Notes: generated by a model from the sequence alone, not told the origin. 64,000 bases of DNA from Raja brachyura (GCA_963514005.1 OY740783.1:55304001-55368000), one strand, 5' to 3'. Positions 14,736 to 24,675 are shown, numbered from the stretch's first letter. A program made the numbers and translations.

Positions 14736-15246
14736 TCAGCTCTGCAGTTGTGAAGGATTGAAGCTGCCTTTCAAGGACTTTGCTGTCGATGAGGGCACAG
14801 ACACAGAGGGGCTTCATAGTTTAACTTATCGTTGGGCTGTTGAAGCTTTTCTCTGGTCTGGGGAGCCTCCATCTGTGTGAAGATTCCTGAGTTTCTCCAC
14901 ATTGTCGAGGGTGCGGTTGGCGTTGGCGGATTGCCAAGAGTGCCTGTGATCTCAGTGGGCTGAAGTTGTGCGGTGTCTTTGTCGTTTTTGGCTCCGCTTC
15001 TCTGCCCTAAAGTCATTTTGTCAGTGCGGCTGCCTGGCTTAATGTGAAGAAGGTACTTTTGCGTCCAGCGCGACTGGGATCGAGTTTCCCGTAAGCTGCT
15101 CTTGGCTGTGGACGAACCTGGGGACTTTCCTGCTTCAGCTGGAGGTTTCTGTTTTCTGCTGCCTGTCTTTGACTGTGACTGTCTCTGGGACTTAACTTGG
15201 AGCTGTGCTGCTGAGGGGCTTGGAGCTGGTTTGTGCCTCTGTGAGG

Positions 15247-17601
15247 ATGGCGATGGAAGGGGCGCGGCCGAAGGTCCGGACCTACGCAGCGACGGCATCA
15301 GTGGCGGGTGCGAGGCCATCTGAGCTTGAGCCTCATGTTGACTTGGATGGGGACAGTTTTGGTATTTCTGTTCAAACTGGGCCTATGATGTCTAGGGGGG
15401 TAATTACGAAGGCCATGAATGAACTTCTTGGGAGGGGGGCTATTGTCTCTTCTGAGCTCGAAAGGGGAAAGGTGGAGATGATACTTAAGACCCGGGAGTG
15501 TGTGGCCCGAGCGTTGGAGGAGGGGATCTCAGTGGGGGGGGTCCACGTACAGGTGGATCCGTGGGTATCCAGGGTGAGACCGGTTCTCCTGCGGAGCTGC
15601 CCCACTTATTTTTCGGATGCAGTGCTTATTCCACACCTGTCCAAGTTCGGGGAGGTGCGGTCTAAGTGCTTTAGGCTCTTGCATCCTGGGGGGGACCCGG
15701 AGGAAAAAGGGGTCTTCAGTTTCAAGAGGAGGGTGTTCATGAAGGTGGGTGAGGGGGATGGTGCCGAGGGGAGTTTTGAGGTGGTGCATAAGGGGGTACC
15801 CAGAACCGTGCGTTGGAGTTGGGGAAAGGCACGGTGTCATGCGTGCGGCGAATTTGGACATCTCCGTAGGGAGTGTCTTTTTCGCGGGGGCACTGCTAGA
15901 GGTTCTAGTGCAGTGGCCCAGGAAAGCGCTGCTGGCCCATCTGGGGTGGCTGGTCAAACCTCAGCGGCGCGGGGTGGTACTGCTGACCCGGCTGAGGTTG
16001 CCAGTTCTGCCTTGGTGACCCGGGGCGGCAGTGCTAAGCCTTCTGGGTCCAGAGGTTCTGCTTTGGGGACCCTGGGCAGTGAGAGCCCAAGCCCCCCACG
16101 TCCCCTACGTCTTGCGCCTGTGGCGGTGGATGGAGGTGGGGCGCAGGAGGAGGGGAGTGTTGAGGGGGGGTTTTGGGAGAAGCAGGGGAAGCATAATAAG
16201 AAGAAGGAGAGGGATAGGGCTGCCCAAGCGAAGAAAGTGCAATCGGGTGAGTTTGGCTCCAGTGTGGTGCAGACTGCACCTGCTGGGGCCCAGGGGGGAG
16301 TTGTGGTGGCTCGGAAGGGGGGAAAGAAGTCTAAACGTGTGGGTGGCAAAGTGGTTGGGGGTAATGTGGAGGCGGATGACCCTTCCCTTATGGAGGTTAC
16401 CGCACCTCCGCATGCGAGTGGGACTAAAAGGAGGCATTTGCCTGGTGAAGAGGAGGAAGGGCGTGGGTCCAGAGCGAAGGGGATGTCTTTCTCCGAGCTT
16501 TCCACCACTGAGGTGGCTGAAAGTGGTCTTGACCCGGTGTCTTCTGGGTCGGTGGTTGGGCCTTCTCTTCATGGATCTACAGCGGGTGTCACCGGACTGG
16601 GTGCTGAAGTTGATTCCGGTGGAGTTGTGTCCACTGGGCGGGAGTCTGTCCCTTCATCTCAGGGGCCCTCTGAGGGAGTTATCTCGGCGGATGCTGTGGT
16701 TAGCTCCCTTGGGTGTGTACCCTCTGGGTCGGATGAGGTCCCCTCGTTTCAGAGGCCTACTGAGGGTGCTAGCACGGTAGATGACGTGGTTGGCTCCTCT
16801 GGTAGTGTGCCCTCTGTGACGGGGGATGGGCAGAGTCAGGCTGAGGGGGGAGTTTCGGGGGTGTTGTCGTTCAAGTCTGTGCTCCATATCAGTGCCAGTG
16901 GAGGTGCTGGGGGGCGGGATGCCTCACCGGATGAGTTGTCTGGGGTGAGGTTAATGGCAGGTGGTGATTCTCTGGGTGATGCCTGTGGAGAGGGCACTCT
17001 GGATGATGTGGAGGTCAGGGCTGTTATGGGACGTGATCCTCTTTCAGACTCCGAGGGTGCCAGTGTTCCACAGGCCCTGGGGATGCCTCTTGTTGTTGCT
17101 TCCCCAGGCCCAGAGGAGGAGGGTGATGGTAGCGGGCAGGAGCCCAGCCATTCAGAGGGCTGCGAGTCTCAGGTAGGGGTGCTGGGACCCACCCCCAGCA
17201 TTGATCCGGGTGGTCGTGTCATGGCTGTGGAGGAGGATAGCGATGCGGCCAGTGGGGGGGGCTCAGAGTGTGATGTGTCAGACAGTTCTGGTCTTTCTGA
17301 GGTTGTTGATTCAGGTGCGAGCGGGTTGGCTGAGAGCCCAGACTCCAAGGCCGTGTCTGAGGCGAAGCTTATTGTTGAGGTGCGAGAGTTCTTAAAAATA
17401 AGTCGTGCTCCCAAAACATTATGGTGGGCCATTACAAGGAGATGGGAGGATTGGCCAGATGTGCGGGAGAGTCTCGAGGCTATCCTTAGTAACAAGGATA
17501 GTGGTCTTTCTGACTCGGATTTGGGGCAGTTTTGGGGTTTGTTGAAGGTCCTCAGAAAAGGACCTCCTGTGACTACAGGGAGTGTGAGGGTCACAATCTA
17601 A
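15247..17601 (+). CDS. Tx1 ORF1 (gag-like nucleic-acid-binding protein, 784 aa from the first ATG)
   Basis: CCHC zinc knuckle CHACGEFGHLRREC preceded by an RRM-like region, then a long G/S/E-rich low-complexity tail; first in-frame ATG at 15247 in aggATGg context (the ORF track starts at GTG 15205). Confidence 0.85.
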   Translation: MAMEGARPKVRTYAATASVAGARPSELEPHVDLDGDSFGISVQTGPMMSRGVITKAMNELLGRGAIVSSELERGKVEMILKTRECVARALEEGISVGGVHVQVDPWVSRVRPVLLRSCPTYFSDAVLIPHLSKFGEVRSKCFRLLHPGGDPEEKGVFSFKRRVFMKVGEGDGAEGSFEVVHKGVPRTVRWSWGKARCHACGEFGHLRRECLFRGGTARGSSAVAQESAAGPSGVAGQTSAARGGTADPAEVASSALVTRGGSAKPSGSRGSALGTLGSESPSPPRPLRLAPVAVDGGGAQEEGSVEGGFWEKQGKHNKKKERDRAAQAKKVQSGEFGSSVVQTAPAGAQGGVVVARKGGKKSKRVGGKVVGGNVEADDPSLMEVTAPPHASGTKRRHLPGEEEEGRGSRAKGMSFSELSTTEVAESGLDPVSSGSVVGPSLHGSTAGVTGLGAEVDSGGVVSTGRESVPSSQGPSEGVISADAVVSSLGCVPSGSDEVPSFQRPTEGASTVDDVVGSSGSVPSVTGDGQSQAEGGVSGVLSFKSVLHISASGGAGGRDASPDELSGVRLMAGGDSLGDACGEGTLDDVEVRAVMGRDPLSDSEGASVPQALGMPLVVASPGPEEEGDGSGQEPSHSEGCESQVGVLGPTPSIDPGGRVMAVEEDSDAASGGGSECDVSDSSGLSEVVDSGASGLAESPDSKAVSEAKLIVEVREFLKISRAPKTLWWAITRRWEDWPDVRESLEAILSNKDSGLSDSDLGQFWGLLKVLRKGPPVTTGSVRVTI

Positions 17602-20600
17602 TGTGTCTACACATTCACAGTAGCTACATTAAATTTAAATGGGAGTAGAGCGAGTTTTCGAAGATTTCAGCTCTTATCAGCCCTAAGGGAGGGGAGATTT
17701 GCAGTTTGTTATCTGCAAGAGACACATACCGTTGCTAGTGATGAACCTACCTGGCAACTGGAGTGGGAAGGGAGGGTTTATATGAGCCATCTCAGCTCAA
17801 ATTCGAGTGGGGTGGCTTTTTTGTTGGCCCCAAATTTTCTGCCAAGCATTTTAAAAGTGCAGGAAGTGGTGCCAGGACGTTTGCTCCATCTGGCCGTGAG
17901 CCTGGATGGCATGCCGTTGCATTTCATTAACGTGTATGCCCCTAGCTCCGGCACGATGCAGGCCGGCCTGCTTCGGGAGGTGAATGCTCTGTTGGGCACT
18001 ATTGATAGGGGAGAGTGTGTCTTCCTTGGTGGGGACTTTAATTGCACACTTGAGGTGCGGGACCGTTCTGGTACTCAGTGTGCGCCTGCTGTAGCGAAGA
18101 AGCTGAGAGGCTTGATTGACTCCTTTGAGTTGGTTGATGTTTGGAGGGACCTTCACCCTGATTCCACTGCTTTTTCGCGGAGGTCTGAGGGCGGTGGTTC
18201 CCGCATTGATCGGTTTTATATTTCCCGAGCGTTTGTTTCCCGTGTCTCAGCGGCCTCAATGCGGCTGGTGCCGTGCTCGGACCATTGTCTGGTGCGTGTG
18301 GATTTCAATCCAGCGTGCGCTCGGGCTGGGTCCGCGTACTGGCACTTTAACAACAGGCTGCTGGAGGATCGGTGTTTCCGGGAGTCATTCACTCGGTTTT
18401 GGGTGAAGTGGAGAGAGAGGCAGAGGTGCTTCTCTTCCCTTAGGCAGTGGTGGGATGTGGGTAAAGCTCACATCCGTCTCTTTTGTAAGGAATATACATG
18501 GGGGTCGACTGGGAGGCGGGACTCAGCGGTCGCGAAGCTGGAGAGGGAGATACAGGACGCTGAGTCTCGCCTGGGTCAGTTTGGTGAAGACTCCAGCGAA
18601 TGGGGAGAGTTTCAGAGGAAGAAGGAGGTTTTGAGGAGTCTGCTGCTTGAGCGATCTCGAGGCGCTTATGTGAGGTCTCGGGTCCAGATGCTGCACGAGC
18701 TGGACCGAGCGTCGCCTTTCTTTTTCTCTTTGGAGAAGGGGCGGGGAGCTCGAAAACAGCTCGTGGAGTTGCTTGCAGATGACGGCTCCTCTGTCACTGA
18801 TCCAGAGAGGATTAATGCCTTGGTTAGGTCCTTTTATGGGACCCTGTTCTCTGCGGAAGGATTCAGTGTGGAGGCTCAGCAAGATCTGTGGGAGGGTCTA
18901 CCGGCCGTAGATAGGGGGGAGGCTGATCTTCTTGATGGCCCCTTATCTTTGGAGGAGTTGACTTGCGCCTTGCATCAGCTCAGGAGGGGTAAGTCCCCCG
19001 GGCTGGATGGGTTGACGGTGGAGTTTGTTAGAGCATTCTGGGACGTCCTAGGGGGTGACTATATGTTGGTTTTGGGGGAGAGCCTGGCGACTGGAGTGAT
19101 GCCTCTCTCGTGGCGTAGGACGGTTGTTGTCTTGCTGCCTAAGAAGGGCGAACTCCGTTTGTTGAAGAACTGGCGTCCAGTCTCTCTCCTTTGCACAGAA
19201 TATAAAATTTTTGCACGGGCAATGGCAAATCGCCTGGGCTCCGTGCTGCATCAAGTGATTCATCCTGATCAATCTTATACAGTCCCTGGCCGGTCCATCC
19301 AGGATAACATCCACCTGGTTAGGGACCTGATTCATTTAGTCCAGGGTACTGGTGAGTCAGCTGCTTTTCTGTCTCTTGATCAGGAGAAGGCTTTTGATAG
19401 GGTAGAGCATGAATACCTATTTGGGACGTTGCAAGCGTTTGGGTTTGGACCACACTTCGTGGCCCGGGTCCGGCTTTTGTACGCTGCGGCGGAGTGTCTT
19501 GTAAAGGTTAATGGCGCGGTGCTATCTCCTTTTCATTTTGGGAGGGGGGTCCGCCAGGGGTGCCCTATGTCGGGCCAGTTGTATTCGGTCTGTGTGGAGC
19601 CGTTCCTGTGTCTTCTTCGGAGGAGGTTGACAGGCCTGGCCCTACCTGGCCCGCGGGTTGAGGTGATTCTATCGGCGTATGCCGATGACGTACTTCTTAT
19701 GTTCACTGATCCTGGTGACCTGCGGAGGATGCGTGACTGCCAGGAGATATTCTCGGCTGCATCTTCTGCTAGGATTAACTGGAGTAAGTGCTCTGGACTT
19801 TTGGTGGGTCAGTGGCGGGTAGACTCCCTGCCGGAGGAGATGGCATTGTATGCGTGGAGTACCACGCACCTCCTCTATCTGGGGGTGTACCTGAGTCCCA
19901 CTGAGGATGTTTGGCCGGCAAACTGGCAAGAGTTGGAGACGAAGGTGGTTGCTCGGCTGGGGCGCTGGTCAGGCCTGCTTGGAGTTCTCTCCTTTCGGGG
20001 GAGGGTGCTGGTCATAAACCAGCTGGTGGCCTCTATGTTATGGTACCGGCTGGCTACTCTTGTCCCGCCCTCTATATTTGTAACTGCTATACAGAAGAAG
20101 CTGGTGGATTTCTTTTGGGGAAATAGGAAGCATTGGATTTCCGCGGCGGTCCTGAGTCTTCCGTTAGAGGAGGGCGGCCAGTCCTTGGTGTGCGTGCGCA
20201 CCCAGGTGGCGGCTCTCCGTCTCAGGACTCTGCGGAGATACATGTATGTAGAGAACCCTCCCAGATGGCACGCTCTGGCCACGTATTTTTTTCGTCAGGG
20301 TCGTTGCCTAAGGGGGGTCTCGCGGCTCCCGGTGGCGGGTGTCAGTCGACCCGCCCTAAGGGGCTTGCCTGTTTTCTATAGGGATGTGTTAAGAGTGAGG
20401 AATTTGGTGGTGTTCAGCCAGAGTGTTGTTCCACGAGGAGAGGGGGATGTTGTGGTTGCGGGTGTGGCTGGTCCTCATCCTGTCATGGTGGTTGTCGAGG
20501 AAAGGCGCGAGCCTAGAGTGGTTCAGATAGAGCTTACCCCTGCTCCGTCAGATCTGCTCATCGGGCCTAGGCTTCGGGATATTTCTCGGCCTCCGGCTCC

Positions 20601-21309
20601 GCATAATCTGAGCTGCCTTTCTGAGATGACCAGCATGCCATTTTGTGATGCAAGGAGACGCGCACTGTACAGGATGCTCCTGCACATTCTGAACCACCGT
20701 GCCTTCGTCTCCCGTTCTGACTCACCATGGAGGACGGTGTTACCATCCGAAGGCGGCGGGGGGCCCCAGTGGGGGTCCTTCTATAAGGGAGTTGTACCCC
20801 TTTATATTGGGGACCTGGGGTGGAGAGTGCTGCATGGAGCGGTGGTTTGTAATAAACTTTTGAGTCGGTTCACGGGCTCGTCTGCCGCATGTATTTTCTG
20901 CGGAGAGGAGGAGACCGTATTCCATGTGTATGTGGAGTGTGTGAGGTTACTGCCCCTGTACCAATATCTGAAGGGGTTGTTCCTCAAGTTCTGGCTGCAT
21001 TTTAGCCCCACAATCCTGGTGTTTGGACACAAGGCGGGGAGTGGGGAGAGCCGAGTGTGGGGGGGGGACTTACCTGTCGGTTTGCTCCTTGGCCTGGCCA
21101 AGATGGCCATTCGTGGGTCCAGGCAGCGGGCGGTCGACGGTCTGGCGAGAGTCGGCTGCCTGCCCCTCTTTCGGGCCTACGTCCGTGCACGTGTGTCCCT
21201 GGAGAGGGAACACGCGGTGTTCACGGGGACTCTGGAGGCCTTCCGTCAGCGCTGGTCGCCGCGTGGGGTTGAGGCGATTATAAATGAATGTACTGCTTTA
21301 CTACAATGA
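17602..21309 (+). CDS. Tx1 ORF2 (APE endonuclease, reverse transcriptase, C-terminal CCHC zinc finger)
   Basis: The frame is open from 17602: TVATLNLNG and CYLQETH (APE N-terminal motifs), GGDFN, SRIDRF, SDH; RT motifs KSPGLDG, NWRPVSLL, DQEKAFD, RQGCP, YADD; CIFCGEEETVFHVYVEC. First ATG only at 17782. Confidence 0.9.
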   Translation, partial: CVYTFTVATLNLNGSRASFRRFQLLSALREGRFAVCYLQETHTVASDEPTWQLEWEGRVYMSHLSSNSSGVAFLLAPNFLPSILKVQEVVPGRLLHLAVSLDGMPLHFINVYAPSSGTMQAGLLREVNALLGTIDRGECVFLGGDFNCTLEVRDRSGTQCAPAVAKKLRGLIDSFELVDVWRDLHPDSTAFSRRSEGGGSRIDRFYISRAFVSRVSAASMRLVPCSDHCLVRVDFNPACARAGSAYWHFNNRLLEDRCFRESFTRFWVKWRERQRCFSSLRQWWDVGKAHIRLFCKEYTWGSTGRRDSAVAKLEREIQDAESRLGQFGEDSSEWGEFQRKKEVLRSLLLERSRGAYVRSRVQMLHELDRASPFFFSLEKGRGARKQLVELLADDGSSVTDPERINALVRSFYGTLFSAEGFSVEAQQDLWEGLPAVDRGEADLLDGPLSLEELTCALHQLRRGKSPGLDGLTVEFVRAFWDVLGGDYMLVLGESLATGVMPLSWRRTVVVLLPKKGELRLLKNWRPVSLLCTEYKIFARAMANRLGSVLHQVIHPDQSYTVPGRSIQDNIHLVRDLIHLVQGTGESAAFLSLDQEKAFDRVEHEYLFGTLQAFGFGPHFVARVRLLYAAAECLVKVNGAVLSPFHFGRGVRQGCPMSGQLYSVCVEPFLCLLRRRLTGLALPGPRVEVILSAYADDVLLMFTDPGDLRRMRDCQEIFSAASSARINWSKCSGLLVGQWRVDSLPEEMALYAWSTTHLLYLGVYLSPTEDVWPANWQELETKVVARLGRWSGLLGVLSFRGRVLVINQLVASMLWYRLATLVPPSIFVTAIQKKLVDFFWGNRKHWISAAVLSLPLEEGGQSLVCVRTQVAALRLRTLRRYMYVENPPRWHALATYFFRQGRCLRGVSRLPVAGVSRPALRGLPVFYRDVLRVRNLVVFSQSVVPRGEGDVVVAGVAGPHPVMVVVEERREPRVVQIELTPAPSDLLIGPRLRDISRPPAPHNLSCLSEMTSMPFCDARRRALYRMLLHILNHRAFVSRSDSPWRTVLPSEGGGGPQWGSFYKGVVPLYIGDLGWRVLHGAVVCNKLLSRFTGSSAACIFCGEEETVFHVYVECVRLLPLYQYLKGLFLKFWLHFSPTILVFGHKAGSGESRVWGGDLPVGLLLGLAKMAIRGSRQRAVDGLARVGCLPLFRAYVRARVSLEREHAVFTGTLEAFRQRWSPRGVEAIINECTALLQ

Positions 21310-21390
21310 TCTGTTCATTATAGTGTGATTTTTGATTGTGTTTTGATGTGTTGTATTTTATGATTTGTGTTGAATAAAGTTTTTGAAATG

Positions 21391-21431
<41 letters not shown>

Positions 21432-22469
21432 AGAGAGAGAGAGTAGAGCAAGAAGATTGTGAAGTTAACAATGTGTAAGCAGAGAGAGCATGAAGAAATG
21501 AATAGTTAGAAAGTGCTGGAGTAACTCAGTGCATGAGTCAGCATCTCTGGAGAACATGGATAGGTGACATTTTGGGTCAAGACCCTTCTTCAGAGTAAAG
21601 TCAGGAAATGAATAGGTGAGAAAGAAAGAACAAAATTGCAGCTTGAGATCAACTGGAACACAGAAACAATTAATATGTCTAAACATCTGCATTGATCTTA
21701 AATTTGTACACCGGTAGTTCTACAAGAACAAAATGTTTAATAACAGTTCAATCTATGAATGGTAATGTTGATAGAGGATGCTGGGATGTCGAGATTAGAT
21801 GACACCTTATCTGCTTCTTGAATGTTATATGGACATTTAAGCATGTTAAATGGACATTTAAGCATTTTAAATGATAGGCCAGAGACCTTTATTCATATAA
21901 TGGTATTAGCCAAGAAAAGAGGATTCAAAATCCTTGTCCAAAACAGGTGCAGGTCACTTTTAGTGATCGAATACGAAGTATAATATCCCACTTTGCTTGT
22001 CCCCGAGCAAGATTGGATTGTTCAGTGAACAAATGGGATTGTGGTGGCCACTGTCATGAAAAAGAGACCTCAATGTGACCTGTCTTGTGACCTGTCTGGT
22101 GATCCTTAAATCCTCACACACAATGTATGGGGAAACCCATGTTTTCAGGTTTCTCAACTGAAAACCCCTTACTCCAGCTTATAGTTCCCTGCCCTGTCGA
22201 TCACAGGACAACATGGGCTTTGGACCAGTGGACTGTTCCTGTTACAGGATGTCTGATACCTTTTTATTCATTCAGAGGATGTAAACGTCATTTGAATCTC
22301 TTGAGTGACATATAGTTAAATTGTCTAGATCCTAGCAAAAAGGACAAGAATCAACAATCAGTTGAGATTGGGGTGATGGCTGGAAACCTGCACTTTGCAT
22401 GAACTGTTTTTTAAAGAAAGGTTCTTCTGGGGAAGTGAGCAGAATAGCATTTCCTTTCAATTGATTATC

Positions 22470-24675
22470 AAAGGAAGACATCATAGCCTATTATGCCCAT
22501 ACAGATAAATCCTTAAGCAATATTCATCTACCTAAAGATGCAATAACATGTAGTAATGTTAATTGTAAAGATATGAAGCATAGGAGAGATATCTGCTCCA
22601 TGTATAATGATATAGTCAGCGCCTTATATGTAGGCAGTAAGCCCTACTGCAAGCATAAAAATAAGACACATAACATCAGACCTGGCTGGAATCAGTATGT
22701 AGCTGAGTATCATACTGAAGCCCGTGAAGCCACCAAAGCATGGGCTATGGCAGGTAGACCAAGACAGGGGCCTGTGTTTGAGCACAAGAAGCTCACTAAT
22801 GCAAGGTATAAGTATGCTGTTCGCTTCATCTGTAAAAATGAGCAAGCTATGAGGGCTGATTCCATGGCTAAGAAGCTGCTAAGTAACAATGCTACAGATT
22901 TTTGGAAGGAAGTGAGAGCTCTTAGCAGTTGCAAAACATCTCAACCATGTACGGTAGATGGAATCTCCGGAACAGCTAATATCGCGGAGTTATGGCGACA
23001 GCATTATAGCACTTTATTCAACTGTGTCCAAGGTGACTTGTATAGGGTGGACAATGTTGAGAGTAATGACTCGATGGCGATTATGTCACATGAGGTGCAT
23101 CATGCCATGAACAAGCTGTCCAACAACAAAGCAAGTGGCTTGGATCATATCTCTGCTGAACAACTTAAGTATGCGAGTATGAGGATAGCTCCTCTCCTAG
23201 CTATTTGTTTTACTGACTTTATGATTCATGGCTTGTTACCAGACTCAATGTTGTCTGTCCTGTTAGTGCCGGTTATTAAGGACAAAGCTGGTAAAGTAGG
23301 CAGTCTAAATAATTACAGGCCCATAGCTTTAGCCAGCATATTGTCAAAAGTCTTATAAAGAGTTCTGCTGGATAGAATAAATGAGTTTGTTAACTCCACA
23401 GATAACCAGGTTGGCTTTAAAGCTAAACATGGCACTGACTTATGCATATATGCCCTAAAGGAGATTGTAAACAAATATAGAGGCAAAAACCCTTCAATCC
23501 TTATGTGCTTTATTGATGCTTCCAAAGCCTTTGACCGTGTCAATCACAGAAAGCTGTTTGGTAAAATGAGTCAAAGAGGGGTGCCTAAATACATTGTTAG
23601 AATTCTGGCCTACTGGTATGCCCACCAGACTATGCAAATAAAATGGGGCAATAGGGTCTCAGCCCCATTTGGGGTTAGCAATGATGTTAGACAAGGGGGA
23701 ATTTTGTCCCCAGTCCTTTTTAATCTATATATTGATGATCTGTCTGAACAATTGAAAGCCTGCAACATTGGGTGCGTGATTGGTAATATTTTAGTGAACC
23801 ATATTATGTATGCAGATGATCTTGTGGTCTTTAGTCCATCTAGCGCTGGTCTCCAGCAGCTCCTTACTACATGTTCCGTGTATGGTGTGGAACATGACAT
23901 TAAATATAATGCTAGTAAGAGTGCTGTTATGGTCTGTAGAACCAAAGAGGATAAAAGCCTAAAATATCCTGATTTTAAATTGTCTGACAACAATCTTAGT
24001 GTCTGTAATAAGATAAAATATCTAGGGCATATTATTACAGAACAAATGACAGATGATGAGGATATTTATAGGCAACGACGCATGCTGTATATACAGGCGA
24101 ATATCCTCTTGCGTAAATTTGGTGCGTGTGCAGATGTGGTGAAGATGGCGCTATTTAGAGCATACTGCACACCCCTCTACACTGCGCACCTGTGGTCGAA
24201 CTATTTAAAGACAAGTATGCAGAGACTAAAGGTGGTATATAACGATGCCATGAGAACACTGCTAAGGCAACCAAGATGGTGTAGTGCCAGTAATACGTTT
24301 GTGGCGGCAGGAGTCAGTACTTTAGAAGCTATCCTAAGACACCACATGTATAAATTCATTTGCAGGATAAATGACTATAAAAATGTGCTTATTGTGGCCT
24401 TGACAAACATAAGGGTTAGCACTACCCGCTACGAATCCCAGCTGTGGAGACACTGGTATCGTTGTCTCGTTGTACGACATTGATCATCTTTTACTCTGGA
24501 TTTTTAACTTAAGTATTGTGGGGTTTTTTTAATATATAAATTATGATTTTTTTTAAATGTGATTTACCTTGATTTTATATATATTTATGATATTTGATAT
24601 GCAATGCATTTTTAATGTAATGTTGTCCCTTGTCTGGACCTTGAGTCCGTAATAAAGTTATTATTGTATTATTAA
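22470..24675 (+). mobile_element. 5'-truncated LINE, probably RTE-X clade, RT frame broken by one nonsense codon
   Basis: ORFs 22573-23358 and 23503-24483 are the same frame joined through one TAA (KVL*RVLLDRI); motifs NYRPIAL, GFKAKHGTDLC, DASKAFDRV, VRQGGILSP, YADD; ends AATAAA then (TTA)-like repeats. Clade assignment is from memory of motifs. Confidence 0.75.

Follow-up and report, generated by a model that had tools for sequence, protein, structure and literature searches.

Loss of the ORF2 start codon in a lineage of Tx1-type LINEs from Raja brachyura, and its possible translation by restart after the ORF1 stop

Several accounts still call the mechanism by which a two-ORF LINE RNA yields its second protein unknown or unconventional (PMC5009743, PMC11485995, PMC4091050). 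For mammalian L1, AUG-independent termination-reinitiation of ORF2 is attributed to Alisch et al. 2006, as cited elsewhere (PMC4091050, PMC5972666, PMC13705589, PMC5009743), and, according to these and related accounts, human and mouse L1 with a mutated ORF2 AUG still make ORF2p and retrotranspose if the upstream ORF is translated (PMC4091050, PMC13705589, PMC11485995, PMC5009743). In SART1, ORF2 follows a UAAUG stop-start coupling, attributed to Kojima et al. 2005 (as cited in PMC10275272 and PMC5972666). In the Group 3 non-LTR elements of Paramecium, ORF1 and ORF2 lie in one frame and readthrough was proposed from the sequence (PMC5405496). The microsatellite-targeting elements Kibi and Koshi are assigned to the Tx1 clade, and Kibi is described as inserting in (TC)n tracts (PMC4494074, PMC3812793).

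The element studied here lies in a window of 64,000 nucleotides from Raja brachyura (GCA_963514005.1 OY740783.1:55304001-55368000, in an assembly of 2.7 Gb; positions are counted from the first letter of this stretch). Like the elements of the Tx1 clade (Xenopus Tx1, Kibi/Koshi), it has an ORF1 with a (here putative) CCHC knuckle, an ORF2 with APE endonuclease and reverse transcriptase, and a poly(A) tail, but whereas Xenopus ORF2 and, among readable homologs, 39 of 40 begin with a Met just ahead of strand beta-1, the lineage to which the window copy belongs, here lineage A, does not. Copies occupy (GA)n/(TC)n tracts, which resembles the (TC)n insertion of Kibi in target type only. With mammalian L1 it shares a two-ORF RNA, an ORF2 downstream of a translated ORF1 and, to judge from its sequence, an ORF2 AUG that is probably dispensable; natural L1, however, has retained the AUG, with a spacer of 63 nt in human L1, whereas in lineage A the AUG is naturally gone, there is no spacer and the element has multiplied in this state. 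The UAAUG pentamer at the ORF1 stop of SART1 is also present in the young subfamily described below, though here its AUG is out of frame with ORF2 and older subfamilies lack it, and a search for conserved structure downstream found none. The Paramecium Group 3 elements share the single-frame ORFs but belong to another clade and a ciliate host, and the cited account gives neither an experiment nor an AUG-bearing sister series (PMC5405496).

The domains of the element are those of an ordinary Tx1-type LINE associated with (GA)n. All of its parts are on the + strand: the visible part of the 5' UTR (14736..15246), ORF1 (15247..17601, ATG at 15247, 784 aa), ORF2 (17602..21309, 1,235 aa) and a short 3' UTR with AATAAA, a poly(A) tail and a flanking (GA)n tract (21310..21445). 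ORF2 has the N-terminal APE endonuclease (residues 8-228) and the reverse transcriptase (513-762) required of a Tx1 clade LINE, followed by a C-terminal Cys motif, and gave domain matches to Exo_endo_phos (7.8e-15) and RVT_1 (1.5e-36), with zf-RVT (4.5e-4) under the cut-off. Its best curated match is the Xenopus Tx1 ORF2 (YTX2, P0002; 50 % identity over 76 % of the query), and the nearest proteins with a name come from stingray (70 %, covering 35 % of the query) and horn shark (64 %, covering 28 %). The N-terminal folded part of ORF1 carries the putative CCHC knuckle (C-x2-C-x4-H-x4-C at residues 197-210; Atlas CCHC clusters 0.91-0.94, Pfam zf-CCHC E 0.007 and under the cut-off), the middle is a G/S/A/E/P/D-rich low-complexity linker of roughly 500 residues (about 215-710), and the C-terminal region is common to sister families. 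In the Atlas, ORF1 (window 15247-16000, +) is positioned near CCHC and ZCCHC3-like RNA-binding clusters. A word-based protein search found no relatives of ORF1, including none of normal length among 2,929 proteins, and hence the lack of any fused ORF1-ORF2 protein among 1,498 longer candidates is uninformative. Full-length copies elsewhere begin approximately 2,880 nt upstream of the ORF1 stop, after a (GA)n tract that precedes the 5' end in 12/12 cases seen, and their 3' ends consist of poly(A) followed by GA-rich sequence, again in 12/12, which can be as short as GAG (L167). A second, unrelated LINE reverse transcriptase fragment (22465-24483, +; RVT_1 2.7e-30), in which a single in-frame stop divides two long open stretches, lies 1 kb downstream of the Tx1 element.

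The junction of the two ORFs is as the preliminary description had it. ORF1 ends ATC TAA, its single in-frame stop being at 17599..17601 (+), and from 17602 onwards the frame has no further stop for 1,235 codons, until that at 21307-21309; the first in-frame ATG is at 17782, codon 61, past the endonuclease motifs. Only one stop separates the ORFs in the window copy and in the older and young copies alike, and a putative fusion of the two would be 784+1+1235 = 2,020 aa long. The AUG-less first 60 codons of ORF2 (17602..17781, +) contain the motifs TLNLNG (N11) and QETH (E40). Codons 5-60 align with the human L1 endonuclease, starting at L1 residue 8, and thus Asn11 and Glu40, which we take to be catalytic residues (the counterparts of L1 N14 and E43), both lie upstream of the first ATG. 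It was also correctly noted that the ATG of the TAATG at 17601 is out of frame with ORF2 and opens an ORF of only 15 codons (17601..17648, +), an incidental one that is missing from subfamilies with TAG. The stop is part of a conserved motif, TC-TAA-TGT (17597..17604, +), which reads TC-TAG-TGT in older subfamilies and in sister families B, C and D. The nearest upstream copy of a TURBS-like UGGGA is approximately 155 nt before the ORF1 stop. A splice-donor-like word, GTGAGG (17584-17589), precedes the stop by 9 nt in lineage A and, in a different frame, by 5 nt in family B, while family C reads GTAAAG; no acceptor fitting this word was found.

The in-frame junction without an AUG could have been peculiar to the window copy, and one branch of the preliminary description was that a single extra base, from mutation or assembly error, had been gained in an otherwise intact element. 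A genome-wide pattern search in which 9 junction bases were left free found the same spacing at 1,298 places (627+671), with no matches to a reversed-pattern control, and TAA was kept in 1,295 of them, the other three having a sense codon. With the same anchors, no place in the genome had a gap 1-3 nt shorter, and a copy-specific lesion or assembly error is ruled out by these counts. This search provides an unbiased count, whereas the 40 best-scored of 874 candidates, which do not differ at any of 401 nt around the junction, were picked by score and are a biased sample; 30 of these 40 are 99.4-99.97 % identical over 3.4 kb, 29 of them with both frames open. Both ORFs are intact in 8/11 full-length copies fetched singly. 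Contigs from two related organisms, J and K, span the junction without gaps in all three of the long records listed (X17 records 9 and 10; X19 record 11), with base 17601 too close to the ends of the fitted parts for its identity to be read. The in-frame AUG-less junction is confirmed as the state of the family, and is neither a lesion nor due to chance. Members of this young family also occur in head-to-tail arrays of up to six full-length units with a period of 6.7 kb (G000:C1:84452704-84486232, L162, and many other sites), joined by poly(A) and a short (GA)n, as expected if every insertion leaves a new target. A subvariant with TAA-TGG, in which the Cys after the stop is replaced by Trp, is represented by 18 copies at approximately 15 sites, and ORF1 and ORF2 are both intact in the example at G000:C1:118384467 (L173).

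Older AUG-less copies, which are 80-97 % identical to the window copy in ORF2, were recovered using a degenerate VCFLQETH pattern (288 matches) and, for those still older, by DNA search. After removal of two truncated and two overly decayed copies from 61 distinct loci, 57 had readable junctions, and the spacing was that of the window in 53, 1 nt shorter in two, 1 nt longer in one and altered by an 8-nt deletion in one. The stop codon is TAG in 52/57 and is replaced by a sense codon, each time a different one, in the remaining five; the two bases before it are TC in 52 of the 53 with the same spacing, and none of the 57 has an in-frame ATG at the junction. As the older subfamilies read TAG-TG without an ATG, the TAATG overlap appears to be a by-product of a recent TAG-to-TAA change in the youngest subfamily. 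Hence, the suggestion that the family uses TAATG coupling to give a product beginning MCLTF fails on two counts: there is no shorter-spaced young copy and the older subfamilies have no ATG at that place. One single copy (L101/L114, G000:C5:31166124), with a spacing 1 nt longer, combines a family D-like 5' side with a lineage A-like 3' side. It was considered as an intermediate in the loss of the AUG, but it nests within the AUG-less clade and may be a chimera, and it was left out of the argument.

Selection on the codons that precede the first ATG was assessed by comparing the window copy with the majority bases of 23 hand-picked older AUG-less copies. For codons 5-60, dN/dS was 0.16 (P = 2e-6), compared with 0.15 and 0.14 further downstream, and the two alternative frames gave 1.14 and 0.88; Asn11 was retained in 23/23 and Glu40 in 21/23 of the older copies. 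Since both sides of the comparison lack the AUG, this selection acted after its loss. On this evidence it is very likely that ORF2 codons 5-60 are translated in the AUG-less lineage, and the part of the preliminary description in which ORF2 is made without an AUG, by readthrough or by a non-AUG restart, stands. It also speaks against Met61 as the start codon and against a family mobilised passively in trans.

The same genome contains three further Tx1 families, B, C and D, in which an ATG lies 12 nt after TC-TAG-TGT. Family B shares approximately 67 % nucleotide identity in ORF2 and has ORF1 in frame, TAG, 12 nt and ATG; in the 16 of 25 loci that could be scored, the others being decayed, truncated or with indels, the 12-nt spacing was seen in 16/16, the ATG in 14 and the stop in 14. 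Family D (81-82 %) has the same arrangement, read directly at the junction of its only two, decayed, copies, and neither B nor D has a second stop. In family C (72-74 %; L157, L159-L161, L174-L177) the motif and the ATG spacing are the same in 5/5, but ORF1 is in another frame and ends approximately 8 codons into ORF2, so that the TAG is not its stop. Family C is multi-copy, with tandem members at a 6.8-kb period, and the five fetched copies that were checked for frames were all broken. In teleost-type contigs (L116, L117, L119 and L123) ORF1 is out of frame and is followed by a spacer of 37-70 nt and an ATG. The ORF2 proteins of Xenopus, sturgeon and teleost type have the Met, and among 40 homologs with a readable TLN-x-NG motif, 39 have a Met that precedes the Asn by 6-10 residues. 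Two proteins, from horn shark (P0056) and tortoise (P0020), start at an internal Met and lack beta-1, which may mean that they are misannotated or that they represent additional lineages without the AUG.

A midpoint-rooted tree was built from ORF2 codons 12-400 in 41 rows, leaving out the junction and fitting decayed copies to the frame of the window copy, with X wherever that frame was broken. Composed of Tx1-type sequences without a non-Tx1 outgroup, it had the topology (B + horn shark protein, (C, (D, A))). The 21 AUG-less rows form a single clade (98/91) nested among the AUG-bearing families, and in this tree without a non-Tx1 outgroup lineage A groups with the Xenopus Tx1 ORF2 at 100/100, together with the sturgeon and tortoise proteins and apart from the teleost-type ones. 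This nesting, with the Met of the Xenopus, sturgeon and teleost-type proteins, points to the AUG as the ancestral state. Across the position of the old ATG, lineage A is 6 nt shorter than family D with the ORF1 frame kept, and from the tree we infer that the ancestors had a stop, 12 nt and an AUG, and that lineage A probably lost the AUG with a net 6-nt in-frame shortening. The whole series is found in one genome: an AUG with an in-frame stop (B, D), an AUG with overlapping ORFs (C), no AUG with TAG and no AUG with TAA.

For the production of the ORF2 protein, the reading we favour, at a probability of about one half, is an AUG-independent, in-frame restart after termination of ORF1. Some ribosomes would terminate at the ORF1 stop and then, without needing an AUG, begin again in the same frame no more than a few codons further on, giving a free ORF2p of approximately 1,230 aa. 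The start would have to be at or before codon 5-6 if strand beta-1 is to be kept, and codon 5 occupies the position of the AUG in the sister families, 12 nt past the stop. Restart is favoured because ORF2p is normally a separate protein in this clade (Met in 39/40 homologs, an ATG in B, C and D and in the teleost-type contigs), because the AUG-less clade is nested in AUG-bearing families, and because the AUG-mutated L1 elements of human and mouse described above still make ORF2p. Simple readthrough cannot serve family C, where ORF1 is in another frame and overlaps ORF2, though motif and spacing are still kept. In addition, the subfamily of approximately 1,300 copies uses UAA-U, a tight stop; in the accounts cited, human cells read through UAA less than through either other stop (PMC10954755), and the readthrough sites of animal viruses are UAG or UGA, not UAA (PMC13517186). 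The UAA-UGU and UAG-UGU junctions match none of the leaky-context types I-III (Beier-Grimm) as given there (PMC13517186). Finally, there is no sign of an extended 3' stimulator, as dS rises rather than falls after the stop (0.83 for codons 5-60 versus 0.39-0.43 downstream) and the predicted folds are unremarkable (z-scores -0.3 to -1.0).

There is also evidence against restart, and much of it supports readthrough. No near-cognate start (CTG, GTG, TTG, ACG, ATH, AAG or AGG) is in frame between the stop and Asn11, and restart would thus need a fully non-cognate codon. The ORF1 frame was kept through the loss of the AUG and in 53/57 older junctions, which readthrough needs and free scanning does not, and with only a single stop basal readthrough was never blocked. 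The L1 precedent for AUG independence comes, in the accounts cited, from engineered constructs in cultured cells (PMC4091050, PMC13705589). Low-level readthrough of the one stop, giving a Gag-Pol-like ORF1-ORF2 fusion of 2,020 aa, is a second, less likely, possibility. Such a fusion protein would assemble together with ORF1p on the RNA that encodes it, tethered by the ORF1 linker of roughly 500 low-complexity residues, and the route may have coexisted with the AUG in ancestors which, like B and D, were in frame without a second stop, making the AUG dispensable. Little ORF2p is needed, about one per RNA according to one account (PMC4091050), low Alu mobilisation that remained with L1 ORF2 constructs containing premature stops has been attributed to readthrough (PMC4176336), and the Paramecium Group 3 proposal is of the same kind (PMC5405496). 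PDB entry 9hdo lists a 1,797-residue chain with L1 ORF2p from near residue 523. Of the features of programmed readthrough, however, the single in-frame stop is present and a known leaky context, a downstream stimulatory structure and synonymous-site conservation were all not found; the largest burst postdates the change to UAA; TC-TAG-TGT is kept in family C, whose ORF1 stop is not this TAG; and no sense-codon subfamily has spread, the sense codons in 3/1,298 young and 5/57 older copies, the latter each different, being isolated cases. The conserved TC before and TGT after the stop are left unexplained by restart and readthrough alike. Other frame-keeping forms of recoding are also conceivable, in which the ribosome would hop or slide from the last ORF1 codon over the stop to a UUC 12 nt downstream, or a stem-loop or motif would position the restart. 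The last ORF1 codon is NUC in nearly all copies, and the TC (52/53 same-spacing older copies) is found also in B and C. A possible 6-bp hairpin at 17600-17615 has the most variable post-stop positions (17606, 17607 and 17609) all in its loop, and the TAG-to-TAA change converts a G-U to an A-U pair. This hairpin was, however, spotted after the fact, is weak (about -4 kcal/mol, z -0.65), shows no change affecting both arms, has no predicted counterpart in families B, C and D and is broken in the TAA-TGG variant (18 copies, approximately 15 sites), while in the young family the take-off and landing codons of a hop match at 2/3 bases only. We consider these routes improbable.

The remaining routes are unlikely, each for its own reasons. 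Splicing of an upstream AUG-containing exon to an acceptor at the junction is suggested by acceptor-like and branch-like words in the young subfamily (CACAG, 17616-17620; CTAAT, 17598-17602), but CTAAT is confined to the TAA subfamily, there is no polypyrimidine tract before the TAG, and the acceptor needs a phase-1 donor, whereas those scoring best downstream of the ORF1 AUG have phase 0 or 2 (best phase-1 score 1.6 versus 5.7, using a crude matrix). None of the 15 listed of 26 joints in contigs (4 runs, whole element) was a junction-spanning splice. No spliced retrocopies were seen either: no match differed at acceptor position -6, and the two that differed at -4 were both unspliced older copies with one substitution, though these patterns would miss a donor exon matching the element at both positions. 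Splicing is accordingly given very little weight. Coupling of the SART1 type at UAAUG, with an extra base in this copy or a +1 frameshift after the AUG, has in its favour the TAATG of nearly all young copies, and we give it hardly any credence. None of the young-pattern copies has a spacing 1-3 nt shorter, the A/T-rich, slippery-looking run that a frameshift might use differs in older copies and is located beyond the conserved strand beta-1, and the TAGTG of the older subfamilies, with the spacing, refutes such coupling as the mechanism of the family. It is just as hard to credit that ORF2 is untranslated from its own RNA, or translated from Met61 only, with the family moved in trans by a sister family. 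The AUG-bearing family C, multi-copy and in tandem in the same genome, is available as a source, but the five C copies checked are broken where 8/11 full-length young copies have both ORFs intact, and the constraint on codons 5-60 equals that downstream (0.16 versus 0.14-0.15, with 0.9-1.1 in the other frames).

Thus, a lineage without an ORF2 AUG has probably thrived for a long time, over approximately 20 % nucleotide divergence and ending in a burst of 1,300 copies, using either a codon-independent restart set by an 8-nt TC-TAR-TGT signal older than the loss of the AUG, or a Gag-Pol-like fusion through UAA. What sets this element apart is that a whole lineage has naturally lost the ORF2 AUG, yet has stayed under selection and recently undergone a large burst, while its sister families retain the AUG. 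No description of an AUG-less Tx1 ORF2 was found in the titles and abstract openings covered by our literature search, a scope outside which lie Repbase, Dfam and most subscription journals, where prior annotation is possible. There are practical consequences for annotation, as gene callers would place the start of such an ORF2 at an internal Met, so that the endonuclease active site is missed, and the horn shark protein P0056 begins at the Met equivalent to the first in-frame Met of lineage A. The evidence for AUG independence has so far come from engineered mutants, and lineage A is a natural and recently very active case, for which the sister families are matched controls only a few bases apart. 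It offers a natural test case for the translation of two-gene LINE RNAs. If the reading given here is true, it would represent either natural initiation without a start codon or functional UAA readthrough into a LINE polyprotein, and either would extend LINE biology.
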